Below are positions 39,400 to 54,844 of a stretch of 64,000 bases of DNA, piece by piece. The stretch covers positions 2,944,001 through 3,008,000 of the forward strand of contig OZ244720.1 in assembly GCA_965219085.1 (NCBI GenBank), given 5' to 3'. Numbering within the stretch: position 1 is the stretch's first letter; each line of letters opens with the position of its first letter. The position numbers and the translations under genes are program-made. The stretch comes from Dehalococcoidia bacterium. Lineage in GTDB: Bacteria; Chloroflexota; Dehalococcoidia; UBA2979. The notes beneath the pieces are model-generated. The model was not told the origin of the DNA and searched no databases. It saw only the letters and a program-made list of their open reading frames with translations.

Positions 39400-40202
39400 G
39401 CGTGCGGGCCTCAGCGGGGCGCGCCGCGCTGGCGGCGGCAGCCGCCGTGCTGCTGCTGTTCCTCGCGCTACCGCTCGTGGGCATCGCGTGGCGCGCGGTC
39501 ACCGACGGCGACGTTGCGACGGAGCTGGGATCGGGCGCGACGTGGGAGGCGCTGCGGCTGTCGGTCGCGACCTCGACGCTTACGCTGGCGCTGGCGGTGC
39601 TGCTCGGCACGCCGCTCGCGTACCTGCTGGCGCGCAGCCGCTCGCCGGCGGCGCGAGTCGTGACCTCGCTCCTCGACCTGCCGCTGGTGTTGCCGCCGAC
39701 GGTGGCGGGCATCGCGCTGCTCACGGCGTTCGGGCGAGCGGGCTACCTCGGTGACGCGCTCGAAGGGATCGGGCTGACGGTGTCGTTCACCACGGCCGCG
39801 GTGGTGCTGGCGCAGCTCTTCGTCTCGGCGCCGTTCTTCGTGCGCGCGGCGTACGCGGGGTTCGCGAGCATGGACCCGCACCTCGAGGGCGTCGCGTACA
39901 CGCTTGGCCTGTCGCGCTGGCGCACGTTCCGCAGCGTGACGCTGCCGCTGGTGTGGCCGGCGCTGGCGGGCGGCGCGGTGCTGTGCTGGGCGCGCGCGCT
40001 CGGCGAACTGGGCGCGACGTTGCTGTTCGCGGGGTCGCTGCCCGGCAAGACACAGACGATGCCCCTCGCGATCCTCGCCGCGTTCGAGTCGGAGGCCGGG
40101 CTGGCCGGCGCGGTCTCGCTGTCGGTCGTGCTGCTGGGGTTCGCGTCGGTGCTGCTGGTCGCGCTCCACCGGCTGACCGCGACAGCGGGGCCCTACCGAT
40201 GA
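39396..40202 (+). CDS. modB: Molybdate ABC transporter permease
   Basis: LPLVLPPTVAGIALL, QLFVSAPF, WARALGELGATLLFAGSLPGKTQTMPLAI. Confidence 0.93.
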   Translation: MSVRASAGRAALAAAAAVLLLFLALPLVGIAWRAVTDGDVATELGSGATWEALRLSVATSTLTLALAVLLGTPLAYLLARSRSPAARVVTSLLDLPLVLPPTVAGIALLTAFGRAGYLGDALEGIGLTVSFTTAAVVLAQLFVSAPFFVRAAYAGFASMDPHLEGVAYTLGLSRWRTFRSVTLPLVWPALAGGAVLCWARALGELGATLLFAGSLPGKTQTMPLAILAAFESEAGLAGAVSLSVVLLGFASVLLVALHRLTATAGPYR

Positions 40203-41257
40203 CGCTGACGGCCGCGTTCAGCGCCCTCGTGGGCGATTTCCGCCTCGATGTCGACTTCGAGGCGGCGAACGAGCTCGTCGTGCTCTACGGGCGCTCGGGC
40301 TCGGGGAAGAGCCTGACGTTGCGCGCCATCGCGGGGCTGGTGCAGCCGGACGCCGGCCGCATCGATATCGGCGGGCGCGCGGTGTTCGATGCTGACGAGG
40401 GCGTCGAGCTCCCACCTCAGCAGCGCCGCGTCGGCTACGTGATTCAGGAGCTCGGGCTGTTCCCGCACCTGAGCGCGCGCGACAACGTGCTGATCGGCCT
40501 CGAGCGCGACGCGGAGGCGCCGGCGCGCTATGAAGCGCTACGCGCGCTGCTCTCGATCGAGGGGCTCGACGACCGGCGGCCGCACCAGCTCTCGGGCGGG
40601 CAGCAGCAGCGCGTGGCGCTGGCGCGCGCGCTCGTGCGGCGCTCGGAGGTGCTGCTGCTCGACGAGCCGTTCTCGGCGCTCGATGAGGCGCTGCGGTCCG
40701 ACCTGCGCGCCGAGCTGCTGCGGCTGCGGCGAGAGCTCGAGCTGCCGATCGTGTTCGTCACGCACGACCTGCGCGAGGCGCACCTGCTCGCCGACCGCAT
40801 CGTGGTCATTGACGGCGGGAGGGTGTTGCAGTTCGCGCCGCGCGACGAGGTGTTCCAGCACCCGTCGTCGCGGCGGGTGGCGGAACTGACGGGCATCGCG
40901 AACATCTTCACCGGCGAGGTGCGCGACGGCCGCGTCGAGGTCGCCGGGCTGCCGCTGCGCGCCGACGACGGCCGGGACAGCGAGGGTGGGACTGTCGACC
41001 TCGCGATCCGGGCGGAACGCTGCATCCTGCGCCGCGTCGACCCCGACGGCGCGCTGCCGGAGAACTGCTTCGTCGCGCGCGTCACCACCGACCTCGCGTT
41101 CGGCAACACCCACACGCTGCACCTCGAACCGGAGGGCGCCGGCCCACCGATCGAGGTGGAGGTGGCGTCGCGGCCGTACGAGGTGCTGGGGATCGCGCAC
41201 GAGCCGCGGTGGGTGGTGGAGTTGCCGGCGGCGGATCTGCACGTGATGCCTCGGTAG
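40199..41257 (+). CDS. modC: Molybdate ABC transporter ATP-binding protein
   Basis: GRSGSGKS, LSGGQQQRVALARAL, LLLDEPF, VTHD, TOBE-like tail. Confidence 0.9.
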   Translation: MTLTAAFSALVGDFRLDVDFEAANELVVLYGRSGSGKSLTLRAIAGLVQPDAGRIDIGGRAVFDADEGVELPPQQRRVGYVIQELGLFPHLSARDNVLIGLERDAEAPARYEALRALLSIEGLDDRRPHQLSGGQQQRVALARALVRRSEVLLLDEPFSALDEALRSDLRAELLRLRRELELPIVFVTHDLREAHLLADRIVVIDGGRVLQFAPRDEVFQHPSSRRVAELTGIANIFTGEVRDGRVEVAGLPLRADDGRDSEGGTVDLAIRAERCILRRVDPDGALPENCFVARVTTDLAFGNTHTLHLEPEGAGPPIEVEVASRPYEVLGIAHEPRWVVELPAADLHVMPR

Positions 41258-41300
41258 CGACGTGCGAGGCAACGACGGACGGCCCGAGTAGTACGATCGA

Positions 41301-41690
41301 TGCGGGTCAGGGGGCTGGACGGCCGCCGGCGGGTGAGCCCTCGGGCTGCTCGCGGGAGGAAAGTCCGAACTCCACCGGACAGGGTGCCGGCTAACGGCCG
41401 GGCGGCGCGAGCCGACGGAAAGTGCCACAGAAACAAACCGCCACCGCGGGGCCTTCGGGCGACGCGGGGGTAAGGGTGAAATGGTGCGGTAAGAGCGCAC
41501 CGGCGTCCCGGAGACGGGGCGGCCGGGCAAACCCCACCCGGAGCAAGGCCAAATAGGGGAGCGGTTGGGGCGTCCGGCTCCGCTCCCGGGTAGGCCGCTG
41601 GAGGCGGCGGGCAACCGCCGCCCTAGATGGATGGCCGTCACCGCCCCGAGGGGCGGTACAGAATTCGGCTTACAGGCCCCCTGACCCGCA
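41301..41690 (+). ncRNA. rnpB: RNase P RNA (bacterial type A)
   Basis: GAGGAAAGTCC, GGAAAGTGCCACAGAAA, GGTAAGAG, GGCAAACCCC..GAGCAAG, ACAGAATTCGGCTTA; P1 helix tgcgggtcagggggc / gccccctgacccgca; -10 TACGAT at 41292. Confidence 0.97.
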
Positions 41691-41718
41691 AGGCGTGTGG
41701 TACACTCCCCCCAGTGGA

Positions 41719-41732
41719 TGGTACAGGTACCA
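41719..41732. promoter_or_regulatory. Palindromic operator candidate for the downstream TA-like pair
   Basis: TGGTAC-AG-GTACCA just after -10-like TACACT (41701-41706). Confidence 0.45.
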
Positions 41733-41753
41733 GTGGCCGGTGGGAGCATACGT

Positions 41754-42254
41754 ATGTCTGAGGTTGAGGTCTTCTACAACGCCGGCCAACTCCGTGAGGA
41801 CGACCCGGCGAATGCCGGGATCGAGGCCCTGCCGCGGCTGACCCGCCGGCTCGCCGAAGCGGCCGCTACCTATAGCGTGGTCGACGCGGGCGAGTTGACG
41901 CAGCAGGACCGCGAGGAGGCGTACCTCAGCCGCGCTGTGCGGCCGTCGGTGAGCAATCGTTACCGGGTGCGGCGTGTTTTTGGCACGAACAAGTACCCGG
42001 GGCAGTACTTCGGAGCCGAGGTCCCGGCGCTCGTGGTGCTGGACGACGGGCGCCCCGTGGACGTGTACCCGCATGAGGAACAGGACGGCACGATCGTGAC
42101 CATTAGCGACTACCTGGACAGCCTCGGTGGCTCCGCCCGCGGCGGCGGCGAGGAACTCGTGCGCCGCATGGACGGGCTGAGTGCTCGCATCGGACGCTAC
42201 GGACGTCTGGATGTGACCACCAGCGAACTGGTCGAGGACGGGCGTCGCCGCTGA
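41754..42254 (+). CDS. Hypothetical protein, putative non-canonical antitoxin
   Basis: GGGAG RBS; directly upstream of a PIN toxin; C-terminus DVTTSELVEDGRRR resembles VapB/FitA tails. Confidence 0.55.
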   Translation: MSEVEVFYNAGQLREDDPANAGIEALPRLTRRLAEAAATYSVVDAGELTQQDREEAYLSRAVRPSVSNRYRVRRVFGTNKYPGQYFGAEVPALVVLDDGRPVDVYPHEEQDGTIVTISDYLDSLGGSARGGGEELVRRMDGLSARIGRYGRLDVTTSELVEDGRRR

Positions 42255-42303
42255 TGACAGGTGGACGCCTGGCCGCGCACCCGGCAAGACTCGGCGAACC
42301 GGC

Positions 42304-42753
42304 GTGACCGCTCGTCGCGGCGTCCGGCGCTACGTGGTGGACGCGTCGGTTGCGGTGAAGTGGCTCTTCGACGACGAAGACCATGTACCGCAGGCGCGCG
42401 CGCTGCGTGACGCCTGCCTGATCGACGGCGCCGTCGAGCTGCACGCGCCGGTGCTGTTCGTCTACGAGGTGGCGAATGCGATCCGCTCCGGCGCGTGGCG
42501 GCTGCGCCTGCCGGCGGACATCGCCGAAGAGGCGCTTGCCACCCTCCTCGAAGCACCGATCGAATTGCACGCCCCCGATCCGCTCACTGCGCTCGGAATC
42601 GGCATGAGCATGACGATCAGCGCCTACGACGCTTCTTACGTGGCACTGGCTGACGAACTCGGCGTCGAGTGCTGGTCGGCCGACGAGCGGCTCGTGCGCG
42701 CTTCGGAACGGAGCGCGCCGTTCGTGCGGTCGATCAGCGAGTACGAGCGATAG
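42304..42753 (+). CDS. vapC: PIN-domain VapC toxin
   Basis: VVDASVAVKW, YEVANA, ISAYDASYVALA, WSADERL. Confidence 0.9.
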   Translation: MTARRGVRRYVVDASVAVKWLFDDEDHVPQARALRDACLIDGAVELHAPVLFVYEVANAIRSGAWRLRLPADIAEEALATLLEAPIELHAPDPLTALGIGMSMTISAYDASYVALADELGVECWSADERLVRASERSAPFVRSISEYER

Positions 42754-42768
42754 CTGCGGCCGGAGGCG

Positions 42769-43185
42769 TCAGCGCTCCATCGTCACCTGGCCGCGCTCGA
42801 TCACGCGGTCGAGGTCGATGACGACGGCGATGCCCTGGCGGCCGGGGTCACGGTCGCGTTCGCGCTTGTCCGAGTTGTCGTAGATCGTGTCGCGCGCCTC
42901 CTGGTCGTCGACGACACGGGCGCGACCGTGGAACTGCCACATCTGCGAGAAGTCGGGGTTGCGATAGAGGAACGCGACATGCGGGTTGGCGGCGATGCGC
43001 TGCAGGAAGCCGCCCTCGCGGTTGCGCACCCATACGGCGAGCTGGTCGTCGCTGTAGACCTGCGTGCTGCCGAAGAACGCGAGGCTTGGCTGACCGTCGG
43101 CGCCGACGCTGGTGGAGATGACGGGGTGGCCGTCGTCGAGTGCGTTGTTGACGGCGGTGCGCATCTCCTCGGTGAGTTCGATCAT
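42769..43185 (-). CDS. Pyridoxamine 5'-phosphate oxidase-like split-barrel protein
   Basis: STSVGADGQP, IAANPHVAF, QFHGRARVV; GAGGTG RBS. Confidence 0.8.
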   Translation of the reverse strand: MIELTEEMRTAVNNALDDGHPVISTSVGADGQPSLAFFGSTQVYSDDQLAVWVRNREGGFLQRIAANPHVAFLYRNPDFSQMWQFHGRARVVDDQEARDTIYDNSDKRERDRDPGRQGIAVVIDLDRVIERGQVTMER

Positions 43186-43293
43186 CGCAGCACCTCGTTT
43201 CGGCGGGCTGTCCGTAGGACTGGGCGGGGCGGTAGGCGGACGGCGCGGTAGTCTACCGCAGACCGGGCACACGCACCTGCGGAGGGGGCCTCG

Positions 43294-44817
43294 ATGAGCG
43301 CACGCGGAGACTGGCGCGACGGATTGCCCGGCGGCGCCGGCCGCGCCTCGCTGCCCGCAATCGCGCGTGTGCAGCACGACTCGCGATTGGTCGGGCCCGG
43401 CGATCTCTTCGTGTGCGTCCCCGGCCTCCGCGTCGACGGGCACGACTTCGCCGCGGCCGCGGTGGCGGCTGGGGCGGCCGCGCTCGTCGCCGAGCCCGGC
43501 CGCGGCGAGACGCTGCGCGCGCTCGGCGTCCCGGTGGTCGAGGCGCCCTCGGCGCGGCAGGCGCTGTCGGCGATCGCGGCGGCGCACGAGGGCTACCCGT
43601 CGGAGCGGCTCACGGTCGTCGGCGTGACGGGCACGAACGGCAAGACGACGACGACGCTGCTCATCCAGGCCGCCCTGGAGGCGTACGGCGAGTCGGCGGG
43701 GCTGATCAGCACCGTCGAGACGCGCGTCGGCGACACGGCCACAGCCAACGCGACGCGCATGAGCACGCCCGAGGCGCCCGAGGTGCAGCGCCTGCTCGGC
43801 GACATGGTCGATGCCGGGAACGAGTACGCCGTGGTCGAGGCGACCTCGCACGGCCTCGCGCTCGACCGGCTTGCGGACATCGCATTCGACGTGGCCGTGC
43901 TCACGAACCTCGGCGAGGATCACCTCGACTTCCACGGCACCGTCGAGGCGTACGCCGAGGCGAAGCTGCGGCTGTTCGCCCAGCTCGACGCGCCGACGTC
44001 GAAGAGCGTCGAGCGCCGGGCCGTGTTGAACGCCGACGACCCGGCGTGGCGTCGCTTCGCCGCGGCGACGCAGGCGCCAGCGCTGACGTACGGCATCGAC
44101 GCCACCGACGCCGATGTCGTCGCCGGCCGTATCGACAACGTCGGCGACGGGTCGACGTTCGAGTTGCAGACGCCCGACTCCGCATTGCACGCGCAGGTGC
44201 GGCTGCCGGGGCGGTTCAACGTCTCGAACGCTGCCGCCGCGTTCGCGGCGTCGATCGCGTTGGGCATCGACCCGTGGCTGGCGAGCGTCGGCATCGCGCA
44301 ATGTCCGGGCGTGCCGGGGCGCTTCGAGCGAATCATGACCGCGCCGATCGGCGTCGTGGTGGACTACGCGCACACCGGCGACGCGCTGGCGGGCGCGCTG
44401 AGCCTGCTGCGAGGCCTCACCGATGGACGGCTGATCGTGGTCTTCGGCGCGGCCGGCGAGCGCCCCTCGGAGCGCCGGCGCGGGATGGGCGCGGTCGCGG
44501 CGCGGCAGGCGGACTACGCCGTGCTGACGGAGGAGGACCCGCGCTCGGAGTCGCCAGACGCGATCATCGACGAGATCGCGCGTGCGATGATCGCCTCGGG
44601 CGCCGAGGAGGGCAGCCGCTTCGAGCGTGTCCCCGATCGCCGCGAGGCGATCGCGAAGGCGATCGGGATGGCGGGGTTCGGGGACGTCGTGCTCCTCGCC
44701 GGCAAGGGCCACGAGCCGACGATCGAGCGGGCGGACGGCCCGCACCCGTGGGACGATCGCCGGGCCGCGCGCGAGGTGCTCATGGAGCGCTTCAGCGACC
44801 CCGACGAGTGGGAGTAG
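43294..44817 (+). CDS. murE: MurE (UDP-MurNAc-dipeptide--diamino acid ligase)
   Basis: HDSR..PGDLF..G..DGHDF, GVTGTNGKTTT, TPE, EATSHGL, TNL..DHLDFH, PGRFE, DYAHT, EDPR, AGKGHE. Confidence 0.93.
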   Translation: MSARGDWRDGLPGGAGRASLPAIARVQHDSRLVGPGDLFVCVPGLRVDGHDFAAAAVAAGAAALVAEPGRGETLRALGVPVVEAPSARQALSAIAAAHEGYPSERLTVVGVTGTNGKTTTTLLIQAALEAYGESAGLISTVETRVGDTATANATRMSTPEAPEVQRLLGDMVDAGNEYAVVEATSHGLALDRLADIAFDVAVLTNLGEDHLDFHGTVEAYAEAKLRLFAQLDAPTSKSVERRAVLNADDPAWRRFAAATQAPALTYGIDATDADVVAGRIDNVGDGSTFELQTPDSALHAQVRLPGRFNVSNAAAAFAASIALGIDPWLASVGIAQCPGVPGRFERIMTAPIGVVVDYAHTGDALAGALSLLRGLTDGRLIVVFGAAGERPSERRRGMGAVAARQADYAVLTEEDPRSESPDAIIDEIARAMIASGAEEGSRFERVPDRREAIAKAIGMAGFGDVVLLAGKGHEPTIERADGPHPWDDRRAAREVLMERFSDPDEWE

Positions 44818-44845
44818 GTTCCGGCACGACCGGAAGGAGCGGGCG

Positions 44846-46216
44846 ATGACCACCGACGAACAGGCGATGCTCGACGAGGCGGCGATCGCGGGCCTGGTCC
44901 GCGACGACCTTGCGCACCTGATCCACCCGCAGTACTACGCACCCGACCACCAGCACCCGGTCATCTACGACCACGGCGAAGGCGTGTGGCTCACCGACGT
45001 GCGCGGGCGGCGCTACATCGACGGCCTGTCGTCGCTGTGGAACGTCGCCGTGGGGCACGGCCGCGAGGAGCTCGCGGAGGCGGCGGCGGGGCAGATCCGC
45101 AAGGCGGCGTTCGTCAACAACTACACCGGCTTCTCGAACGTACCGGCGATCCAGTTGGCCACGAAGCTCACTTCGGGCATCGCGTACGACAACCTCGAGG
45201 GCGTGTTCTTCACGAACTCGGGGTCCGAGTCGAACGAGGGGGCCGTGAAGACGGCCCGCTTCTACTGGAACCTCGTCGGGCGGCCGGAGAAGGTGAAGAT
45301 CATCGCCCGGCCGCGCGCGTACCACGGCGGCACGTTGCTGACGACGGCGATGACCGGGCTGCCGCCCTTCTGGAAGTACTTCGGCCCGCTGCCCCCCGAG
45401 GTCGTCCACACCGGGGCGCCCGAGGTGGAGTGCGACTGCGTCAAGAACGCCGACGGCGAGTGTGCGTGCTGGCTCGAGACGGCGATCGAGCGAGAGGGCG
45501 CTGAGACCGTCGCGGCGTTCATCGCCGAGCCCGTGAAGGGCGCGGGCGGAGTGTGGACGCCGGCCGACGAGTACTTCCCGAAGGTGCGCGAGATCTGCGA
45601 CCGCAACGACATCCTGTTCATCGCCGACGAGGTGATCACGGGCTACGGTCGCACCGGCCACTGGTTCGCCCTCGAACGCTGGGGGGTGGAGCCGGACATC
45701 TTGACGATGGCGAAGGCGATCACCTCGGGCTACATCCCGCTGGGCGGGTTCCTCGTGAGCGGCGCGATCATGGAGGCGCTGCGGGAGACGCCGCCCGACG
45801 CGCGGTTCATGCACGCCTACACCAACAGCGCGCACCCGACCGCCGCAGCGGTGGCTCTGCGCAACCTGCAGATCATCGAGGACGAGGACCTGGTCGCGAA
45901 CGCCGCCGCGATGGGCGAGCGGCTGGGCCGCGGCCTCCGCGACGCGCTGGGCGAGCACCCCCACGTCGCGAACATCCGCAGCCTCGGGCTCATCGCCGGC
46001 ATGTCGCTCGTGCGCGACGCCTCGACGGGCGAGCGTTACGAGCCCGGCGAGGGCATCGGCGGGCTCGTGGCGCGGCACCTGCGCGAGGAGGGCGGCGTGG
46101 TGACGCGCTTCGTCGTCGACGAGATCGTGCTGGCGCCGCCGCTGGTGGTGTCGGAGGGCGAGGTCGACCAGATCGTCGCCTCGCTGGCCGATGCTATCGA
46201 CGCGGTGACGGCGTAG
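44846..46216 (+). CDS. Class III PLP aminotransferase (omega-amino acid/diamine type)
   Basis: YIDGLSSLWNVAVGHG, SGSESNE, AYHG, FIAEP, IADEVITGYGRTG, AKAITSGY.PLG. Confidence 0.92.
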   Translation: MTTDEQAMLDEAAIAGLVRDDLAHLIHPQYYAPDHQHPVIYDHGEGVWLTDVRGRRYIDGLSSLWNVAVGHGREELAEAAAGQIRKAAFVNNYTGFSNVPAIQLATKLTSGIAYDNLEGVFFTNSGSESNEGAVKTARFYWNLVGRPEKVKIIARPRAYHGGTLLTTAMTGLPPFWKYFGPLPPEVVHTGAPEVECDCVKNADGECACWLETAIEREGAETVAAFIAEPVKGAGGVWTPADEYFPKVREICDRNDILFIADEVITGYGRTGHWFALERWGVEPDILTMAKAITSGYIPLGGFLVSGAIMEALRETPPDARFMHAYTNSAHPTAAAVALRNLQIIEDEDLVANAAAMGERLGRGLRDALGEHPHVANIRSLGLIAGMSLVRDASTGERYEPGEGIGGLVARHLREEGGVVTRFVVDEIVLAPPLVVSEGEVDQIVASLADAIDAVTA

Positions 46217-46228
46217 GCCGCTCGCGGG

Positions 46229-46615
46229 TTAGCGAGTGGGAGGCATGGTCTGCACAGCGTATTGAGGGATGGTGCTGTCACTCGTCACAATCGTCAGGCC
46301 CTCAGCCTGAGCCTGCGCGATGAGCATCCGGTCGAAAGGGTCGCGGTGGATGGGCGGGAGCGCTGCGGCCTGCTCGCCGTGAAAAAGAGTGACCGGCAGG
46401 CCCGTGAAGCCATCGCGTTCAATCCTTCCGGACAGGTCTTCTGGAGCTCGGAGCTTGCCTAACGCCCGCTTGATGGCGATCTCCCAGACGGTGGCTGCGC
46501 TGACATAGCAGTCGTTGTTCGGGTCGGTGATGGCATCGCGTGAGACCGGGCCCAGGCTCGGATTGTTGCTGAGTGCCCATACCAGCACCTGGGAGTCGAG
46601 GAGCAGGCGCAGCAC
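46229..46615 (-). CDS. vapC: PIN-domain VapC toxin
   Basis: LLLDSQVLVW, SAATVWEIAIK, HRDPFDRMLIAQA, VTSD. Confidence 0.92.
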   Translation of the reverse strand: MLRLLLDSQVLVWALSNNPSLGPVSRDAITDPNNDCYVSAATVWEIAIKRALGKLRAPEDLSGRIERDGFTGLPVTLFHGEQAAALPPIHRDPFDRMLIAQAQAEGLTIVTSDSTIPQYAVQTMPPTR

Positions 46616-46857
46616 TATGCTTCGTCGTCGTAGGCGCCCTCGAACGCTTCGATGATCTCCAGAGGAGTCTCATCGAAGTCCGGGGCGATCCATATCTGTC
46701 CCTCAAGCGAGCCCAACTTGCGTCGGCGCCGCTCACGGTATGGCTGCAGCAGGAGGTAGGGCTTGCCCGCTTTGGCGATGACAACCTCCTCTCCCTGCCA
46801 AGCCAACTCGCCCAGTCGTGAGAGCTGTGACTTTGCTTCGTGCATGTTGAACTGCAT
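46615..46857 (-). CDS. Phd/YefM antitoxin
   Basis: NMHEAKSQLSRL...GEEVVIAKAGKP; coupled to VapC; upstream IR AGCTA-ggtt-TAGCT at 46871-46884. Confidence 0.92.
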   Translation of the reverse strand: MQFNMHEAKSQLSRLGELAWQGEEVVIAKAGKPYLLLQPYRERRRRKLGSLEGQIWIAPDFDETPLEIIEAFEGAYDDEA

Positions 46858-46942
46858 GTTGAGGCTCGTTAGCTAGGTTTAGCTTAGCCCATGGTGCGCT
46901 ACGCACAGATCTTCGTCAATCAGCGGCGTTCTCCCCTGCCGA

Positions 46943-46972
46943 TTGACGCTAGCGGCCCTCCCGCCATATCGT
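46943..46972 (+). promoter_or_regulatory. Sigma70-type promoter for a small transcript
   Basis: TTGACG (46943-46948), 18-bp spacer, TATCGT (46967-46972). Confidence 0.5.
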
Positions 46973-46979
46973 CGCGCCC

Positions 46980-47125
46980 AAGGAAGGAGGTGATGCCTCA
47001 TGGATGATGATCGTAGTCACGGCCCGGAGGGCCAATCGCATGACATCTCTAAGGAGGTGTCGGCGGGCTAATTCCGGGCCCGTGTGACTTCTGGAGCGCC
47101 CCGGCCTGGCCGGGGCGCTCTCTTT
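46980..47125 (+). ncRNA. Candidate structured small RNA / small-ORF transcript (ORF 47000-47071, MDDDRSHGPEGQSHDISKEVSAG)
   Basis: AAGGAGGTGAT extended SD, long hairpin 47015-47089, own promoter and terminator. Confidence 0.5.
47094..47125 (+). terminator. Intrinsic terminator
   Basis: gagcgccccggcc / ggccggggcgctc inverted repeat followed by tcttt. Confidence 0.65.
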
Positions 47126-47189
47126 CCCCCGGCACCCTCCCCCTACACTGGTTCAGACACCCGATTCCCCACACGGCGAGGAGCGCCCA

Positions 47190-47975
47190 GTGCCCTTCGA
47201 CGAATCGCGCTACGAGGAGCTGCACCACGGCGGCATGATCGGCTCGCTGGTGCACTATCGCGAACGCACCGCCTCGACCATGGACGACGCGCGCGCGGGC
47301 GCCATGGCGCGCCGCGGAGAGGGCTGCGGCGACGCCTACCTCGCCGACGAGCAGACCGCGGGACGCGGCCGGTTCCGACGGCCATGGGTCGACGCGCCCG
47401 GCGCGTCCCTGCTCGTGACGTTCCACCTCTGCGTGCTCGACATGGTGTACGCCCCGCTGGTCGGGTTCGCGGGCGCGCTCGCGGCCGCGGAGGCCGTGAC
47501 GGAGGCGAGCGGCGTCGAGACCGGGTTGAAGTGGCCGAACGATGTGCTGGCGGGGGGCCGCAAGCTCGCCGGGATCCTTGCCGAGGCGCAGCCGGGTGGC
47601 GTCGAGGCCGACGTGTTCCTCGGCATCGGCATCAACATCGGCGAAGCCGCGATCGCCGGCCTGTCCGAGGCGGAGCGCGCCGTCGCGACGACCATCGAGG
47701 GCGAAGGGGCGACAGCCCCAAGCGTTGAGGAGTTGCTGGCGGCGCTGTCCGAGGCGCTCGAGCGTCGTCTCGCGGAGGTCGACGCGGAGCCGGAGCGGCT
47801 GCTCGCCGACTGGCGGGCGCGCCTCGGCATGCTCGGCTCCCGCGTGCGGCTCTCGACGACGGACGGCGAGATCGAGGGCGTGGCGACGGATGTGACGGCC
47901 GAGGGGCAACTCGTGCTCCGCCTGGACGCTGGCGACACGTTCAGCTTCGCTGCGGGCGACGTCACGGTGCTGTGA
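47190..47975 (+). CDS. birA: Biotin--[acetyl-CoA carboxylase] ligase (no HTH)
   Basis: STMD, QTAGRGR, KWPNDV, KLAGILAE, GIGIN, AGDV; GAGGAG RBS. Confidence 0.93.
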   Translation: MPFDESRYEELHHGGMIGSLVHYRERTASTMDDARAGAMARRGEGCGDAYLADEQTAGRGRFRRPWVDAPGASLLVTFHLCVLDMVYAPLVGFAGALAAAEAVTEASGVETGLKWPNDVLAGGRKLAGILAEAQPGGVEADVFLGIGINIGEAAIAGLSEAERAVATTIEGEGATAPSVEELLAALSEALERRLAEVDAEPERLLADWRARLGMLGSRVRLSTTDGEIEGVATDVTAEGQLVLRLDAGDTFSFAAGDVTVL

Positions 47976-47995
47976 GTGTCGCGGGAAATTCTCGC

Positions 47996-48253
47996 GTGAC
48001 CGATCAGGAGATCCTCGCGAAGGCCGAGAGCATCGCCCGGCGAGCGTACACGTTCACGCTGACGCCGAATGAGGGCGGGGTGTGGACTTCGGGGGTGCTC
48101 GAGATTCCGGGAGTCGTGTCGGAAGGCGACGATCCAGCGGAGGCAATAACGATGGCGCGCGACGCGCTGCTTGAGTTGGCGATTGTGCGCCTCGAGGATG
48201 GGATCGAGATTCCCCCGCCGTCGGAACCTCGTGACAGCCGAGTTGATGGCTGA
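47996..48253 (+). CDS. HicB-like (UPF0150) protein
   Basis: YTFTL...GGVW....EIPGVVSEGD..AEAI.MARDAL...LEDG.EIPPP. Confidence 0.8.
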   Translation: MTDQEILAKAESIARRAYTFTLTPNEGGVWTSGVLEIPGVVSEGDDPAEAITMARDALLELAIVRLEDGIEIPPPSEPRDSRVDG

Positions 48254-48318
48254 GCGTGCTCAGGCGTCAGCGACGCGGTCGGAGGCGTAGAGGGCCGAAC
48301 GTGCGCGGCGCGCGCGGG

Positions 48319-48843
48319 ATGCCGATCGTAGTCACGCGCGTCAGTGACGGTGACACGGTCGTTGTTCGCGAGGACCGGCGGTTCGCGCAGGAGTTTCGGG
48401 TGCGCCTGTACGGCATCGACGCGCCTGAGTCGGATCAGCCGTTCGGGCGCGAGTCTACCGAGGCACTCCGGCGAATGACGAGATCGCAGCCATTGTCGCT
48501 CGACGTCTTCGCCCACGACCAGTACGGGCGTGCGATTGGACTGCTCTACCCGCGAGGCGGCGATCCGCGTCAGTCGTTGAACGTCGCGATGGTTCGCGAG
48601 GGGTGGGCGTACTGCTACCACCGGAAGGGCCGCTACAGCCACGGACTGGACGCGGCACAGCGCCAGGCGCAGGCCGCCAGACGCGGGGTATGGTCTCGGC
48701 GAACCGAGCGGCCCTGGCGTTACCGGCGCCGCATGGCCGAGGAGCCGGCCGCGTCACAGATGTCGATCGAGTCGCGCATCTTCATCGCTGCGGCAGCGCT
48801 GCTCATCCTGGTGATCGTGATCGCGAGGGTGTTCGGCGGTTAG
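48319..48843 (+). CDS. Thermonuclease (SNase) with C-terminal TM helix
   Basis: VSDGDT, VRLYGIDAPE, DQYGR, MVREGWA, A.AARRGVW, PWRYRR; start 48319 or 48256. Confidence 0.88.
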   Translation: MPIVVTRVSDGDTVVVREDRRFAQEFRVRLYGIDAPESDQPFGRESTEALRRMTRSQPLSLDVFAHDQYGRAIGLLYPRGGDPRQSLNVAMVREGWAYCYHRKGRYSHGLDAAQRQAQAARRGVWSRRTERPWRYRRRMAEEPAASQMSIESRIFIAAAALLILVIVIARVFGG

Positions 48844-48857
48844 CGGAGCGAGATCGC

Positions 48858-48887
48858 TTGACCCTCGGGCGGATGCCCACCTACGCT
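48858..48887 (+). promoter_or_regulatory. his operon promoter
   Basis: TTGACC (48858-48863), 18-bp spacer, TACGCT (48882-48887). Confidence 0.6.
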
Positions 48888-48895
48888 CGATTGCG

Positions 48896-48979
48896 ATGCG
48901 AACGATCGAGGTCTACGGCCGCCATGACCATATGCATCGGGTCCATCGGAACCCGTCGCGAAGCTGCGCGCATCGCTAG
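48896..48979 (+). CDS. hisL: His-rich leader peptide MRTIEVYGRHDHMHRVHRNPSRSCAHR (attenuator uORF)
   Basis: 5 His codons, all CAT; upstream of hisZ; followed by a terminator; contains antiterminator-complementary segment. Confidence 0.75.
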   Translation: MRTIEVYGRHDHMHRVHRNPSRSCAHR

Positions 48980-49003
48980 TCGTTCGGCCGATGCCAGTGG
49001 CGC

Positions 49004-49034
49004 GCCGCGACGGGATCCCGTCGCGGCCTTTTTT
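49004..49034 (+). terminator. Attenuator terminator of the his leader
   Basis: gccgcgacggg-at-cccgtcgcggc followed by ctttttt. Confidence 0.85.
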
Positions 49035-49075
49035 GTGCCGCCGCCACCCCGAACGACGCCGGTACGGGACGTGAG

Positions 49076-50095
49076 ATGACCAGCGAACGCAGCGATACCG
49101 CACTCCACCACGCGCACGCGGCTCCCGCGGCCGAACTGCGCAGCCCCGGCATGCACGACCTCGGCCCGGAGGCCATGCGCCATTTCCGCGCCGTCGAGGC
49201 ACGATTCCTCGAGGTCACCGCGCGCGCCGGCTACGCGGAGATCCGCACACCGACCGTGGAGCCGCTCCACCTCTTCACCGGCGCGGGCACGCTCTCTCCG
49301 CAGATGCTGGACCGCGTCTACTCGTTCCTGGACTGGGACGGCTGGAGCGGCGAGCGCGTCGTGCTGCGGCCTGACAGCACGCTGCCCGCCGTGCGCTGGC
49401 ACGAGGAGCAGGCGAGCGGCGGGACGTCGCGGCTGTGCTACGTGCAGCCGGTCTACCGCTTCGTGCCCGGCGGCGGCCAGCGCGAGCAGTGGCAGTGCGG
49501 CGCCGAGCTGTTCGGCCTCGAGGCGCCGGACGGCGACGCCGAGCTGCTGCGGCTGGCGCTCGGCCTGCTCGACGCACTCGGCATCGAGGCCGTGCGCTTC
49601 GACCTCTCACACACCGGCCTCGTGCGCGCCGCGCTTGAGGCAACGGGGCTCGACGCCGCCACCCAGCTCGCCACGCTCGACCGCCTGCTCGACGGTGACG
49701 ACGGCGCGATCCGCGAGGTCATCTGGGCACGGCCCGAGCAGGCCGGGGCGTTGCGCGTGCTGTTTGAGATCGACGGGCACGACGCCGGATACCTTGCGAA
49801 CGTGCGCGCGGCGCTCGGCCCGGTGCCGGGTGCGGAGGCCGCAGTCACCGAGCTCGATGCGGCGGCGCGAGCCCTCGACGCGGCTGGATGTGCGTTCCGC
49901 GTGTCGGCGTCGTCGGTGCGCAACTTCGAGTACTACACGGGCGTCACGTTCCGCGCGCTCGCCGGCGACACCGAGTGCCTGCGCGGCGGGCGCTACGACG
50001 GCCTGGCCGAGACCATCGGCGGGCGCCCGGTGCCGGCCTCCGGCTTTGGTGCGGACATCGAGGTGCTGATGGCGCTCGCGGAGGGCGGCGCATGA
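49076..50095 (+). CDS. hisZ: ATP phosphoribosyltransferase regulatory subunit
   Basis: HisRS-like: PGMHD, GY.EI.TP.VE, VLRPDST, Q.GAEL, EYYTGVTF, GGRYDGL; no anticodon domain; precedes hisG. Confidence 0.88.
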   Translation: MTSERSDTALHHAHAAPAAELRSPGMHDLGPEAMRHFRAVEARFLEVTARAGYAEIRTPTVEPLHLFTGAGTLSPQMLDRVYSFLDWDGWSGERVVLRPDSTLPAVRWHEEQASGGTSRLCYVQPVYRFVPGGGQREQWQCGAELFGLEAPDGDAELLRLALGLLDALGIEAVRFDLSHTGLVRAALEATGLDAATQLATLDRLLDGDDGAIREVIWARPEQAGALRVLFEIDGHDAGYLANVRAALGPVPGAEAAVTELDAAARALDAAGCAFRVSASSVRNFEYYTGVTFRALAGDTECLRGGRYDGLAETIGGRPVPASGFGADIEVLMALAEGGA

Positions 50096-51576
50096 TCGAC
50101 GACTCGATCCGCGTCGCACTGCCTCGAGGCGACCTGCGCGCGCCGCTGGCCGAGCGGCTGGCGGCCGTGAACTTCGCGCCGCCCGGCTACAGCGAGGGCT
50201 CGCGCGCCTACCGCTTCACCGTCGAGGGCCGCCCGCGTGTCGCGGTGCGCGTGTTTTCAGACGAGGACATCCCGATCCAGATCGCCCTCGGCCAGTACGA
50301 CCTCGGGATCACCACCCGCTCCTCGATCGACGAGTTGGTGACGCGCTACGGCCACGACTCGATCGTCTCGTTGCGCGCGCTCGATGTCGGCGAGGCGCGC
50401 GTGGTGCTCGCCGCGCCGGCGGGGACGACGGTGTCGGAGTTGGGCGTGCTGCGTCCGCTGCGCGTCGCCACGACGTTCCCGCACCTCACCGCGCAGTACC
50501 TGAACTGGCTGCGCGTACCCGACTACCGGCTGATCGAGGTCTGGGGCCAGCCCCAGGCGTGGCCGCCGGAAGACGCCGACGCCGCCGTGCTCGCCGTCCC
50601 GGGACGAGAGGGGCCGCCGGCGGTCCTCGAACGTGAGGGCCTCGATGTGGTCGCCGAGGTACACCGCGGCTCGGCATGGCTTGTCGCGAACCGCCACGCC
50701 CTCGGCGAGCATGACCTGCGCGAGGCGCTCGACGCGCTGCTGCAGCTGCCCGCACGTCCGCAGGCGCCGGTCAGCGTGCGCTACGGCCCGCTGCGGCCGA
50801 CGCCGCTCGTGCAGCGTCGCGCAGGCGGCGCGCGGCCGGCGGACGGCGACGGGCGCGACGGCGCGTTGCGCCTCGCGGTGCCGGACGGCCACGCGCAGCG
50901 GCACACCGTGGAGGCGCTCGCGGCCGCGGGCATCGCGTTCGACGGCTACGACGAAGCACAGGCCGTCCGCCGGCCGCGCTCGGCCATCGAGGGTGTCACG
51001 GTGAAGGTGATCCGCCCGCAGGACATGCCGCAGGCGGTGGCCCTCGGACGGTTCGACGTGGCGTTGACCGGTCGCGACTGGCTGGCGACACACCTCGCCG
51101 CGTTCCCGGCGTCGCCGGTCGTCGAACTGTGCGACCTGCACCGCAGCCGCTACCGGATGGGCGCGGTCGTGTCGGAGGACGTGCCGGCCAACACCATCCC
51201 CGAGGCGGTCGCGTACTGGCGGCGCGACGACCCGGGCCGCGCGATCCGCGTCGCCTCGGAGTACGTCGAACTGGCCGACCACTACGCGCGCGAACGGCAC
51301 CTCGGACGGTACCGTGTGATCCCGATCGGCGGCGCGTCCGAGGGCTTCGTGCCAGACGACGCGGAGATATTGATCGAGGGTTCCGAGACGGGGACCACCC
51401 TGCGCGCCAACCGGCTCCGTATGATCGACGTGATCATGGAATCGACGAACTGCGCCATCGGCTCGACGATCCGCCCGCCGGGGGCGCGCGGCGAGCTGCG
51501 CGACCGGCTGGTGGAGCGCCTCGCCGCGGCCGCCCCGCCCCCCGCCCCGTCACCTGGCGGCGGCGGGCCGGCGTAG
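50092..51576 (+). CDS. hisG: ATP phosphoribosyltransferase with two fused short-HisG modules (494 aa)
   Basis: Module 1: VALPRG, DIP...G.YDLGIT, RVATTFP. Module 2: LAVPDG, IRPQDMP..V..G.FDVALTG.DW, RVASEY, ETGTTLRANRL. Confidence 0.88.
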   Translation: MIDDSIRVALPRGDLRAPLAERLAAVNFAPPGYSEGSRAYRFTVEGRPRVAVRVFSDEDIPIQIALGQYDLGITTRSSIDELVTRYGHDSIVSLRALDVGEARVVLAAPAGTTVSELGVLRPLRVATTFPHLTAQYLNWLRVPDYRLIEVWGQPQAWPPEDADAAVLAVPGREGPPAVLEREGLDVVAEVHRGSAWLVANRHALGEHDLREALDALLQLPARPQAPVSVRYGPLRPTPLVQRRAGGARPADGDGRDGALRLAVPDGHAQRHTVEALAAAGIAFDGYDEAQAVRRPRSAIEGVTVKVIRPQDMPQAVALGRFDVALTGRDWLATHLAAFPASPVVELCDLHRSRYRMGAVVSEDVPANTIPEAVAYWRRDDPGRAIRVASEYVELADHYARERHLGRYRVIPIGGASEGFVPDDAEILIEGSETGTTLRANRLRMIDVIMESTNCAIGSTIRPPGARGELRDRLVERLAAAAPPPAPSPGGGGPA

Positions 51577-51600
51577 CCGGCAGGCGCGAGGAGGAGCCGT

Positions 51601-52356
51601 ATGCCCTCGCTCGGATCGCACCTGACCAGCGCCTACGGGCTGGCCGCGCGCCTGGGCACGCCGCACATCGACGCCGACCGCGGCGCCTACTACCTCGGCT
51701 CGACGGCGCCGGACATGCGCATCCTCATGCGCGTCGACCGCAAGCTGACGCACTTCTTCGAACTCAGCGACTTCGAGCCGCAGGACTCGATTGCGCGCAT
51801 GTTCGAGGCGCACCCGGATCTCGGCGACGCGGTCGCGCTCGACCCGGCGATGCGCGCGTTCATCGCCGGCTACATGACGCACCTGCTCATGGACGAGCAC
51901 TACATCCAGAGCGTCTACCGCGTCCACTTCGGCGAGCGCTCCCCGCTGGGCGGCGACCTGTGGGCGAACGTCCTCGACCGCTCGCTGCAGTACGAGATGA
52001 ACCGCCGCGAGCTGGAGGACGACGCCGCGCTCGCCGACGTGCGCACCGCCATCGACGCCTCGCAGTCCGCGGTCGGCGTGCCGTTCATCGAGGAGGAGCT
52101 GTGGCCGGAGTGGCGCGACTTCACGCGCGGCATCACGCACCAGCGCCCGGACTTCGAGCGCTTCCCACGCGTGATGCAGATCCACCTCCGCCGCGTCGGC
52201 TTCTCCGACGAGCGGATCGAGGAGATCGGCAACGATCCGCCGCAGATCATCAACGAGGCGTTCGAGGCCGTGAGCGAGGAGCGCGTCGCCGAGTACATCG
52301 AGGAGGCGACGGAGCTCGCCTTCGACCGCCTGCGCGAGTACCTGCCGGCCCCATGA
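51601..52356 (+). CDS. Zinc-dependent phospholipase C/P1-nuclease-fold protein
   Basis: MP...SH N-terminus, YYLGSTAPD, THF, GYMTHLLMD; GAGGAG RBS; overlaps hisD start. Confidence 0.7.
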   Translation: MPSLGSHLTSAYGLAARLGTPHIDADRGAYYLGSTAPDMRILMRVDRKLTHFFELSDFEPQDSIARMFEAHPDLGDAVALDPAMRAFIAGYMTHLLMDEHYIQSVYRVHFGERSPLGGDLWANVLDRSLQYEMNRRELEDDAALADVRTAIDASQSAVGVPFIEEELWPEWRDFTRGITHQRPDFERFPRVMQIHLRRVGFSDERIEEIGNDPPQIINEAFEAVSEERVAEYIEEATELAFDRLREYLPAP

Positions 52357-53696
52357 CCGCCCAGGCCCTCGCGCTCCGCATCGTCGAGGGCGCCGAGGCG
52401 GCGCGCGAGAGCGTGCTGCGTCGCGACCCCGCTGGCGCGTCCGAGCTTCCCGAGCCCGTGCGCGCCTCGATCCGCGAGACGTTCGGCGCCGACCTGACCG
52501 CCGACGAGGTCGTCGCGCGCATCGTCGAGGACGTGCGCCGCGAGGGTGACGCCGCCGTGCGCCGCTACTCGCAACGCTTCGACGGCTCGGCCGACGCGCC
52601 GATGGAAGTTAGCGCCGAGGAGTTCGAGGCCGCGCTCGACGAGGCCGGGCACGACCTCGTCGAGTCGCTGCGCTACGCCGCCGAGCGTGTGCGCGTCTTC
52701 CACGAGCTACAGCTCGAGCACGGGCCGCAGTCGTTCCTCTATGAAGGGCTGGGCCAGACGGTTCGGCCGATCGAGCGCGCCGGCATCTACATGGCGGGCA
52801 GCGTGGCCGTGCTGCCGTCGTCGGTGCTGCACACCGCCGTCCCCGGCGTCGTCGCCGGAGTGCCGGAGCTCGTCGGCGTGACCGCCGCACGGCCCGATGG
52901 CAGCGTGCACCCGCTCAAGCTCGTCGCCGCCTCGATCGCCGGGGTGCAGCGCGTGTTCCGCGCCTCGGGCGCGCAGGCGATGGCCGCGCTGGCGCTCGGC
53001 ACCGAGTCGATCCCGCGCGTCGACAAGCTCTTCGGCCCCGGCAACCTCTTCGTCACGCTCGCCAAGCGCCAGCTGTTCGGCGAAGTGGGCATCGACGCGC
53101 TCTACGGCCCGACCGAGACGCTCGTGCTCGCCGACGCCGACGCGCCGCCCGACCTCTGCGCCGCCGACCTGCTCGCGCAGGCCGAACACGACGCCCTGGC
53201 CACGCCGCTGCTCATCACCACCAGCCTCGAACTGGCCGAACACGTGCAGATCGCCGTCGAGGAGCAACTCGCGACCCTCGCTCGCGGCGAGATCGCCCGA
53301 GCGGCGATCGAGCGCGGCGGCGCCGCCGTCGTCGAGGACCTCGACGAGGCGATCGAGTTGGCCAACGCGTTCGCGCCGGAGCACCTCTGCATCCTCACCA
53401 GCGACCCCGGCGCGGTGGCCGACCGCGTGACCAGCGCCGGCGGCGTGTTCGTCGGCGAGCACTCGCCCGAGGTGCTCGGCGACTACGTCGCCGGGCCGAG
53501 CCACGTCATGCCGACGGGTGGCTCGGCGCGCTACGCCTCGCCGCTGTCGGTGCTCGACTTCCTGAAGGTCACCTCCGTCGTGGCGCTCCCCGACGACGCG
53601 CTCGAGTCCCTCGGGCCGCACGCCGCGCGGCTCGCGCGCGCCGAGGGGCTCACCGGCCACGCGCGCTCGATCGAGCGCCGGCTGGAAGGCTTCTGA
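52353..53696 (+). CDS. hisD: Histidinol dehydrogenase
   Basis: GAQAMAALALGT, KLFGPGN.FV..AK, GPTE, DLLAQAEH, APEHL, GDYVAGPSHVMPT. Confidence 0.96.
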   Translation: MTAQALALRIVEGAEAARESVLRRDPAGASELPEPVRASIRETFGADLTADEVVARIVEDVRREGDAAVRRYSQRFDGSADAPMEVSAEEFEAALDEAGHDLVESLRYAAERVRVFHELQLEHGPQSFLYEGLGQTVRPIERAGIYMAGSVAVLPSSVLHTAVPGVVAGVPELVGVTAARPDGSVHPLKLVAASIAGVQRVFRASGAQAMAALALGTESIPRVDKLFGPGNLFVTLAKRQLFGEVGIDALYGPTETLVLADADAPPDLCAADLLAQAEHDALATPLLITTSLELAEHVQIAVEEQLATLARGEIARAAIERGGAAVVEDLDEAIELANAFAPEHLCILTSDPGAVADRVTSAGGVFVGEHSPEVLGDYVAGPSHVMPTGGSARYASPLSVLDFLKVTSVVALPDDALESLGPHAARLARAEGLTGHARSIERRLEGF

Positions 53697-54844
53697 TGTC
53701 CGGCCGCTTCGACCTCGACGCCGCGCTACGCCCCGCGCTCCGTGACATGGACGGCTATGAGCCAATCGAGCCGCCCGAGGAGGCCGCGGCGCGCTACGGC
53801 GTCGCGCCCGGGGACGTCGTGAAGCTCGATGGCAACGAGAACCCGTACGGCCCCTCGCCACTCGCGCGCAAGGCGCTCGCGGGTGGCTACGAGGCGCACC
53901 GCTACCCCGACCCCGACCAGCGCCGCCTGCGCGCCGCGCTCGCCGCGAGGCACGCAATTCCCGAGGCGAGCATCGTCGCGGGGGCAGGGGCCGACGAGCT
54001 GATCGACCTCGTGTTCCGCGTCTTCGTCGACCCCGGCGACCGCATCGTGATCGCCTCGCCGACGTTCGGGATGTACGGCTTCGGCGCGCGCCTCTATGGC
54101 GCGACGCTCGTCGACGCACCCCGGCACGAGGCCGACTGGAGCCTCGACGCCGACGCGCTGGTTGAGGCCGCCGGGGGGGCGAAGGCGGTCTTCATCCCCT
54201 CGCCCAACAACCCGACGGGCGGGCTGCTCCCGCCGGACGTGCGCGACCGGCTGCTCGCCAGCGGCGCACTGCTCGTCGTCGACGAGGCGTACATCGAGTT
54301 CGCGCACGGCGAGTCGCTGGTGGAGTGGGCGGCCTCGGGCGACGCGCCGCTGATCGTGCTGCGCACGTTCAGCAAGTGGGCCGGCCTCGCCGGCCTGCGC
54401 GTCGGCTACGGCGTGATGCCGGGGCCGATCGCCGACGCGTTCATGCAGTGGAAGCAGCCCTACGGCGTGAACCTCGCCGCCGAGGCCGCCGCCATCGCAT
54501 CGATCGAGGACGCGATGCTGCTCGACGAGCGGGCGTGCGAAATCGCCGGCGAGCGTGAGCGGCTGGAAGCCCTCCTGCGCGAGGACGGCTGGCTCGAACC
54601 CACGTCGTCTGAAGCCAACTTCCTGCTGTGCCGCATGTCGGATCGCCTCGGCGGTGACGGGGCAGCGCTGCGCGAGGCCCTGGCACGCCGAGGGGTGTTC
54701 GTGCGCTTCTTCAGCGACCCGCGACTGCGCCGCCACGTGCGCATCTCCGCGGGCACACCTGCCGACACCAATCGAGTGCTCGCCGCCCTGGACGAGGCGG
54801 GCCGCGAACTGGAAGGACCAACTTCTGGAGGGGGGGCGCGATGA
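53696..54844 (+). CDS. hisC: Histidinol-phosphate aminotransferase
   Basis: KLDGNENPY, RYPD, SPNNPTG, DEAY.EF, RTFSKWAGLAGLRVGY. Confidence 0.95.
   Translation: MSGRFDLDAALRPALRDMDGYEPIEPPEEAAARYGVAPGDVVKLDGNENPYGPSPLARKALAGGYEAHRYPDPDQRRLRAALAARHAIPEASIVAGAGADELIDLVFRVFVDPGDRIVIASPTFGMYGFGARLYGATLVDAPRHEADWSLDADALVEAAGGAKAVFIPSPNNPTGGLLPPDVRDRLLASGALLVVDEAYIEFAHGESLVEWAASGDAPLIVLRTFSKWAGLAGLRVGYGVMPGPIADAFMQWKQPYGVNLAAEAAAIASIEDAMLLDERACEIAGERERLEALLREDGWLEPTSSEANFLLCRMSDRLGGDGAALREALARRGVFVRFFSDPRLRRHVRISAGTPADTNRVLAALDEAGRELEGPTSGGGAR

Follow-up and report, generated by a model that had tools for sequence, protein, structure and literature searches.

In a 64,000-nucleotide (nt) stretch of the chromosome of a Dehalococcoidia bacterium (Chloroflexota; contig OZ244720.1), hereafter the window, in whose numbering all positions are given, the biotin-protein ligase gene birA is preceded by a unit of ~147 nt that comprises its own promoter, a long Shine–Dalgarno (SD) sequence, a 23-codon frame enclosed in a hairpin rod and its own terminator. 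The unit is a real, conserved and unannotated element, and we have high confidence that it is functional and that its frame is kept by selection. Our preferred interpretation, to which we assign a probability of roughly 0.4, is that of a Chloroflexota-wide translated leader mini-cistron, in which translation rather than the peptide would matter and read-through of the terminator would feed birA; for the specific mechanism our confidence is moderate to low. A preliminary description of the window had proposed an unannotated, self-contained small transcription unit at this place, and, as far as sequence comparison can tell, this proposal holds: frame and structure are conserved in relatives, the unit matches no Rfam family and it is present in a single copy in its own genome, which is a single contig of 3.3 Mb with 70% G+C and a marker-gene completeness of 92.7%.

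All features of the unit lie on the forward (+) strand. The promoter (46943–46972) consists of the −35 hexamer TTGACG (46943–46948), a spacer of 18 nt and the −10 hexamer TATCGT (46967–46972), as originally described, and is the sole promoter-like site in the region 46200–48200 (shuffle mean 0.2). Both hexamers are kept in all 19 copies from the genus, with a spacer of variable sequence. More broadly, a −35/−10 pair was recognized in 93 of 107 distinct upstream regions, with the sequence TTGAC in 89 of these 93 and a spacer of 17–18 nt likewise in 89. In 74 of the 93 promoter-bearing regions, 13 nt separate the −10 hexamer from the first G of the SD core GGAGG, and because this gap is fixed, the RNA is predicted to start at the ribosome-binding site; we infer a 5′ end ~6 nt before the GGAGG core, here at about A46980.

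The extended SD sequence found at this predicted 5′ end, SD1 (AGGAAGGAGGTGAT, 46981–46994), had been recognized from its resemblance to a canonical 16S complement. Its portion AAGGAGGTGAT (46984–46994) pairs perfectly, over 11 nt, with the 3′ end of the genome's own 16S gene (...GGATCACCTCCTTTCT), and the complementarity grows to 14 nt (46981–46994, with one G·U pair) if the mature 16S tail retains UUUCU. A complement of the 16S tail of 11–14 nt is a conserved feature of the unit: SD1 is invariant in 19/19 copies of the genus, and its GG.GGTG.TG columns are invariant across 78 diverse aligned sequences. The 11-mer occurs only four times on both strands of the 3.3-Mb genome, once in the ribosomal DNA (rDNA) and twice in what look like intragenic positions. 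In parsed copies the start codon, which can be ATG, GTG or TTG, follows GGTGAT by 4–7 nt.

The hydrophilic open reading frame (ORF) of 23 codons and a TAA stop (MDDDRSHGPEGQSHDISKEVSAG, 47000–47071), also reported at the outset, was intact in 60 of 60 family copies, with a length of 19–24 amino acids (aa). Within the genus, the sole insertion or deletion inside the frame is of 3 nt, those of 1 nt being located directly before the start and after the stop, and two copies have GTG in place of ATG as the start codon. One copy from another genome carries a 60-nt in-frame insertion, which extends the frame to 41 aa and adds a hairpin. A second candidate frame (starting at ATG 46993 or 47004) was rejected, being broken by 1-nt insertions or deletions between relatives. 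The amino acids themselves bear no sign of comparable constraint. Among 23 independent close pairs, substitutions at codon positions 1, 2 and 3 numbered 44:50:35, and the changed codons comprised 23 synonymous and 73 nonsynonymous ones, so that neither the third-position nor the synonymous excess of purifying selection on the leader peptide was observed in these pairs. Peptides from different families show no relationship to one another (compare MDLDRSLGLARVLSLRGIRG with MDSSHCCPSIETSCTEVTVC). As selection maintains the frame without preserving the amino acids, we conclude that it is translation of the leader frame that would matter and not its product.

Within the frame lies a second 16S-complementary element, SD2 (GGAGGTG, 47053–47059), the GAG of which begins 15 nt before the stop codon. 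It is part of the second AAGGAGGTG (47051–47059), which, as stated in the preliminary description, has no start codon at the usual spacing. Of 74 distinct ORFs, 68 contain SD2, and in 65 of the 68 it lies in frame; the distance from the start codon is 42, 45, 48, 51, 54 or 57 nt, all multiples of three. Most ORFs have SD2 15 nt before the stop codon, and six have it 12 nt before; in two lineages SD2 is out of frame, yet still located 13–14 nt before the stop. With the stop codon in the aminoacyl (A) site of a ribosome, SD2 lies ~6 nt behind the codon in the peptidyl (P) site, which is the same spacing as that between SD1 and the start codon. The most invariant nucleotides of the entire unit are those of the two 16S-complementary sites. 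In four Tepidiforma-type copies the ORF ends ...GGAGGUGACCUCCUCCUAG, that is, with an SD-like run continuing directly into a sequence resembling the 16S 3′ end (CACCUCCUUUCUAG in the rDNA of the genome analysed here), so that the SD/anti-SD helix would be imitated within a single molecule.

The region 46975–47130 folds with a free energy of −87.9 kcal/mol (z = −5.5; 0/200 shuffles as stable), and all helices of the rod and its cap that had been proposed are present in the minimum-energy fold, together with the terminator stem. The rod base, P2, pairs AGTCAC (47015–47020; codons 6–7) with GTGACT (47084–47089), 4 nt before the terminator stem; the rod helix pairs GGCCCGGA (47021–47028) with TCCGGGCC (47073–47080), directly after the stop codon; and in the cap hairpin the anti-SD-like segment GACATCTC (47042–47049), which could alternatively pair with SD1, is joined through the loop TAAG to the strand GAGGTGTC (47054–47061), in a pairing that involves SD2. 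The rod appeared in every single-sequence fold of the 19 genus copies, its register being shifted between two clades. Cognate segments of the rod base (codons 4–10 versus the 20 nt before the terminator) paired with −16.5 kcal/mol, compared to −11.0 kcal/mol for non-cognate ones, and SD1 paired with the stop region with −10.8 versus −9.3 kcal/mol, a weaker effect; in neither case were any of 2000 permutations as good, and although such cognate/non-cognate tests are inflated by relatedness, the rod-base effect is nonetheless large. Consistent with a contact between SD1 and the stop region, the SD1 core GGGGG is accompanied by a C run at the stop in 21/22 sequences, as opposed to 6/77 for GGAGG. 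Within the genus, RNAalifold prefers SD1 paired with the anti-SD-like sequence ACAUCUCC; this SD1-sequestered fold is extended by 5 base pairs (bp; 21–25:64–68) with two compensatory pairs (CCUGC/GCAGG versus CCCAC/GUGGG), at a cost relative to the rod of +1.9 to +14.9 kcal/mol across the genus.

The unit ends with an intrinsic terminator (47093–47125) consisting of a 13-bp stem (47093–47105/47109–47121), the loop CTG and the pyrimidine/T-rich tail CTCTCTTTCC. RNAalifold identified three compensatory pairs in its stem within the genus, and its own arms, used as a positive control, paired with −28.7 kcal/mol, compared to −14.9 kcal/mol when the arms were non-cognate. Many other genera have a strong T tract, but in this genus it is weak, which is why a strict scan missed the terminator. 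As the terminator is near-palindromic (47094–47120), minus-strand matches of the model and blast searches are artefacts. Folding of truncated transcripts, in which the 5′ arm of the terminator was partnered in 69/80 cases without a ribosome mask at the stop codon and in 50/80 with it, was uninformative, because G+C-rich arms find partners in nearly every case.

To the extent that similarity is detectable by a blastn-type search, the block from just before the −35 hexamer to the terminator is present in 18/18 other genomes of the genus, with 74–91% identity, the next-best matches outside the genus having expectation values (E) of 0.007 or worse. When 99 genomes of the order were searched with a covariance model derived from the 19 copies of the genus, 44 of them, representing 14 other genera, contained full-length matches, of which 41 were fetched, and four more genera without a model match carry the unit upstream of birA, as recognized by eye. 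In a sample of the class, 32/151 genomes matched, and 20 of the 22 fetched loci, from other families of the class, were true copies; the two others were terminator-only false positives and were dropped. An exact degenerate pattern occurred at more than 120 places in species-representative genomes. The copies it recovered, of which 80 were fetched, nearly all carry Chloroflexota labels, including Dehalococcoidia, Tepidiforma (among them a cultured strain), Ktedonobacterales, Thermoflexaceae and Ca. Amarobacter, and a few matches in other phyla are probably due to chance. The carriers include the genome record of Tepidiforma flava and four contigs of metagenome-assembled genomes with the labels Ktedonobacteraceae or Ktedonobacterales. 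Five clear copies reside on contigs of metagenome-assembled genomes labelled Firmicutes/Bacillota, Acidobacteriota or simply 'bacterium', one of them nearly identical to a Dehalococcoidia copy; these could result from mis-binning, mislabelling or transfer. Finally, among 151 genomes sampled evenly across the phylum, 74 were matched by a sequence-only model derived from 78 diverse copies (72/149 without two unpublished genomes).

The element corresponds to no Rfam family. As a check suggested in the preliminary description, positions 40000–54000 were compared with Rfam 15 at E up to 1, and the unit received only a terminator-only match to ncS54, at 21.4 bits versus the gathering score of 43; none of 20 diverse loci had a match at the gathering score. 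Full-text literature searches likewise returned no description of a birA-leader element.

The gene that follows the unit in the window, birA (47190–47975, +), encodes a group I biotin-protein ligase, devoid of the DNA-binding domain (PF03099, PF02237 and TIGR00121, the latter with 113.5 bits versus the cut-off of 83.1), and is present in a single copy. A BirA homologue is encoded downstream on the same strand in 79 of 84 loci, and one of the five exceptions is cut by the contig end. The extrapolated gap between the terminator and the birA start is only 15–35 nt in more than 20 loci from several families, and ~21 nt, including a GGGAGG box, in 11/19 genus copies. A gap of this size leaves no room for a separate promoter and ribosome-binding site after the terminator, signifying that in those lineages birA would have to be transcribed by read-through from the unit or from a promoter buried inside it. 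In the window the gap amounts to 68 nt and contains the TACACT box that had been taken for the −10 element of a promoter belonging to birA. This claim could not be confirmed as it was stated, given that the box is kept only among the nearest relatives and that 11 of the genus copies have the short gap; an own birA promoter in this window is possible but unproven. Judging from the gene spacing, birA is probably not an independent transcription unit in many Chloroflexota, and it appears to depend on terminator read-through in many lineages, a link that the preliminary description had missed. The likeness of the birA ribosome-binding site (GGAGCGCCC) to the 5′ arm of the terminator showed no covariation in relatives and was taken as chance.

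These observations suggest the following course of events. The strong promoter would start the RNA almost at the 11–14-nt complement of the 16S tail, so that a 30S subunit could load once ~20 nt have emerged. The ribosome would then translate the 19–24-codon frame inside the rod, unzipping the long-range helices. Upon arrival of the stop codon in the A site, the position of SD2 behind the P-site codon would reproduce the geometry of an initiation SD, and the 16S tail could thus hold the terminating ribosome over the very segment that otherwise sequesters SD1. Untranslated copies would fold shut, SD1 being sequestered in many lineages by a pyrimidine run located at the stop codon and in this genus by ACAUCUCC. 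The autonomous terminator would end most transcripts as an RNA of ~147 nt, the read-through transcripts serving as birA messenger RNA (mRNA). Translation would thereby set the fold of the RNA and, probably, its stability and read-through. Protection by the 5′ SD against 5′-end-dependent decay, as in the hbs mRNA, would fit the fixed spacing between promoter and SD.

Several points weigh against this interpretation. None of the 22 sequencing runs, from 10 studies, that contain the stretch is recorded as RNA, and the RNA start, the 3′ end and translation are predictions. No antiterminator was detected: when four upstream segments were paired with both arms and the tail of the terminator, cognate and non-cognate combinations differed by at most 0.5 kcal/mol, which was not significant. 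The terminator is thus, by these pairing tests, autonomous, with no classic antiterminator, and the unit therefore does not fit a classic attenuation switch. The distance from the stop codon to the terminator (median ~22 nt) varies from 10 to 58 nt, being larger in Tepidiforma- and Ktedonobacter-type copies, which makes a universal mechanism based on the proximity of ribosome and terminator unlikely. The SD1-sequestered fold is, in this genome, 14.9 kcal/mol worse than the open rod. Pausing of ribosomes at internal SD-like sites is disputed in the field. A birA promoter buried in the unit is possible. The link to birA is also not universal. Among five pattern-hit genomes re-examined with 1.5-kb flanks, birA follows the leader stop by 160 and 291 nt in two, and in the other three the unit is followed by a convergent gene, with birA located elsewhere and unled. 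In the phylum sample, birA was downstream of the unit in 15 of 28 parsed loci (in one of them 1067 nt away) and on the opposite strand in two, and 11 loci had no birA within reach, five of these being cut by contig ends. The stand-alone copies and the loci without birA indicate that the unit can persist without birA in cis. With regard to the variable distance, a cited study reported that termination efficiency rises with distance over lengths that the range found here covers, so that most of these terminators would be expected to function, some of them perhaps with partial damping.

The existence of stand-alone copies makes an autonomous, ribosome-engaging small RNA (sRNA) the main alternative, if one that we regard as rather unlikely; a ribosome-binding or dual-function RNA was among the possibilities named in the preliminary description. 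According to this explanation, the ~147-nt transcript would itself be functional and act in trans, perhaps by occupying 30S subunits or the 16S tail through SD1 and SD2 or by reporting translation capacity, and birA would hitch-hike on its promoter by read-through. The stand-alone copies retain promoter, SD1, frame and terminator, and SD2 is kept in two of the three verified types; the genomes that carry them have birA elsewhere and unled, and seven phylum-sample loci that are not cut by contig ends were also counted as lacking birA. The autonomy of the terminator, the concentration of the most invariant nucleotides in both 16S-complementary sites and the near uniqueness of the SD1 11-mer in the genome would all be expected of such an RNA. 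However, a single copy in each genome would hardly suffice to titrate ribosomes, a decoy needs no maintained frame with a positioned stop, and the linkage to birA (79/84) spans families with unrelated peptides.

In a bolder proposal, which we consider doubtful, the unit would be a phylum-wide 'ribosome-clamp' RNA, a mini-mRNA bound twice by the 16S 3′ tail, at the 5′-terminal SD of 13–14 nt and again at SD2 when the stop codon occupies the A site. Switching between a ribosome-held open and a self-sequestered closed state, it would sense free ribosomes or translation capacity and gate its own stability, read-through and the supply of biotin ligase. If true, a leader peptide combined with a terminator that lacks an antiterminator would represent a mechanism not described for any attenuator.

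A micropeptide gene, whose 19–24-aa product would be a fast-evolving small protein or precursor peptide with conserved N-terminus (M.DDSSH or MDSSH) and C-terminus (..EV...) and a variable middle, is improbable. The frame, start and stop are kept throughout, the terminal residues recur across classes, and the very strong ribosome-binding site suggests high output. In addition, Cys, Ser and Thr abound in the leader peptides of other classes (such as MDSSHCCPSIETSCTEVTVC), those of the window's own family being acidic; this richness may reflect either an RNA constraint or a role of the peptide. The recurring residues are, however, invariant at all three codon positions, are encoded by codons that are rare for a genome with 70% G+C (GAT, CGT and AGT), and coincide with the RNA motifs P2 and SD2, and the GAGGUG sequence maintains its distance to the stop even when out of frame. 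Neither the net charge nor the composition of the peptides is conserved. Eight exact leader peptide sequences were absent from a collection of ~15 billion proteins, the 23-aa peptide has no match in Pfam or NCBIfam, and no modifying enzymes were seen next to the unit, the upstream gene encoding a generic class-III aminotransferase. With no third-position excess, mostly nonsynonymous changes and near-complete divergence between families, the micropeptide gene envisaged in the preliminary description, understood as one encoding a selected peptide, is not supported.

Still less credit can be given to a leader that binds a ligand or a protein, for instance a biotin-related riboswitch or an operator bound by BirA, of which the ORF would be a by-product. 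An autoregulatory leader would be expected to occur once per genome and to be linked specifically to birA throughout the phylum, as is seen here, and the RNA is strongly structured. Against this, nucleotide conservation is confined to translation signals (SD1, start, SD2 and stop), the frame is maintained, families differ freely in the sequence and length of loops and junctions, and copies exist without birA. Furthermore, the genome yielded no bioB above the cut-off (best score 28.9 bits) and no bioD, which leaves no biosynthetic regulon to coordinate; the organism is probably auxotrophic for biotin and still dependent on BirA. The idea of a biotin operon was abandoned because the class-III aminotransferase is not BioA (316 bits versus the cut-off of 405), in addition to the lack of bioB and bioD. 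Lastly, a CsrA/RsmA-type sponge built from ANGGA motifs, another early suggestion, can practically be dismissed: the unit does contain several GGA motifs, of which some are located in loops, but these motifs belong to SD1 and SD2, and CsrA (PF02599) had 0 matches in the genome (completeness 92.7%) in a search that matched 3/14 well-known control genomes.

The class-III aminotransferase gene (44840–46216, +), which scores under every curated cut-off, is separated from the unit by a PIN-domain (VapC-like) gene (46229–46615, −) and a VapB-like antitoxin gene (46615–46857, −). In most relatives the aminotransferase gene adjoins the unit, its stop codon lying 15–20 nt before the −35 box, and the VapBC pair thus appears to have been inserted in this genome. 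In a streamlined genome of another genus (1.2 Mb, 33% G+C) the unit has been lost, the birA start following the aminotransferase stop within ~12 nt. Downstream, in the region 47972–48843 (+), the birA stop overlaps the start of a 93-aa ORF without a family match, which is followed by a staphylococcal-nuclease-like gene (PF00565; 48256–48843, +). The bacterial RNase P RNA of class A is encoded at 41307–41688 (+), as judged by a full-length match of 283 bits.

Comparison with known systems places the unit among translated leaders. It resembles the leader-peptide attenuators (trp, his, leu and pyrBI) in that a short frame with its own ribosome-binding site is followed by an intrinsic terminator before a structural gene, and in that the peptide sequence does not matter, the likely variable being where the ribosome stands relative to the RNA structure. 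It differs from them in having no antiterminator, no regulatory codon run and no fixed distance from stop to terminator; furthermore, the downstream gene is not one of amino-acid or nucleotide biosynthesis, and stand-alone copies exist. No run of codons for a sensed amino acid is conserved across families, only one or two Asp codons after the start being recurrent. The unit is thus of the translated-leader kind, sharing two of the defining features of classic attenuators and lacking two others.

The 5′ part of the unit calls to mind the STAB-SD of cryIIIA, a 5′ stabilizer of mRNA in Gram-positive bacteria. For the hbs mRNA of Bacillus subtilis, protection by a strong SD and long-range pairing between 5′ and 3′ parts are described in a published report (PMC5737220). 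In the unit, too, a long 16S-complementary site would lie very near the predicted 5′ end, where it could shield the RNA from 5′-end-dependent decay; the unit differs in the start codon at canonical spacing (4–7 nt), the conserved frame and the terminator before birA. Type I toxin mRNAs (hok and aapA) are similarly small and folded, with an SD that can be sequestered by long-range pairing and translation limited to certain folding states. Unlike these toxins, the peptide of the unit is hydrophilic, variable and not membrane-active, the associated gene, birA, is a housekeeping one, and no antisense RNA gene was seen at the unit.

The frameshift site of prfB, the gene for release factor 2 (RF2), also comprises a frame of ~20–25 codons closed by an in-frame stop codon, shortly before which an SD-like element contacts the 16S tail of the elongating ribosome. 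The spacing between that element and the P site is reportedly 3 nt, in contrast to the ~6 nt of SD2, and in the unit no open +1 frame leads into a gene: the +1 frame after the leader TAA stops within six codons and is followed by the terminator. SgrS/SgrT, RNAIII/hld and SR1/SR1P are dual-function sRNAs, which the unit resembles as an independent small unit with promoter, terminator and a translated small frame. It differs from them in that its conserved segments are ribosome-contact sites and not seeds, its peptide is not conserved and it has no known pairing target.

If the unit is indeed a translated leader of the kind preferred here, it would define an undescribed and very widespread regulatory RNA family of the Chloroflexota, with matches in about half of the phylum sample, in which a translated leader with two 16S-complementary sites and a terminator without an antiterminator would not fit classic attenuation. 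To our knowledge, no regulator of a group I biotin ligase gene itself is known, and none was found in the literature searched; the unit would thus be the first candidate for a post-transcriptional control element of such a gene. At the least, it represents a new family overlooked by annotation pipelines and by Rfam, and it would offer a clean natural test case for two disputed questions, namely whether internal SD-like sequences hold ribosomes and how far the lead ribosome influences an intrinsic terminator.

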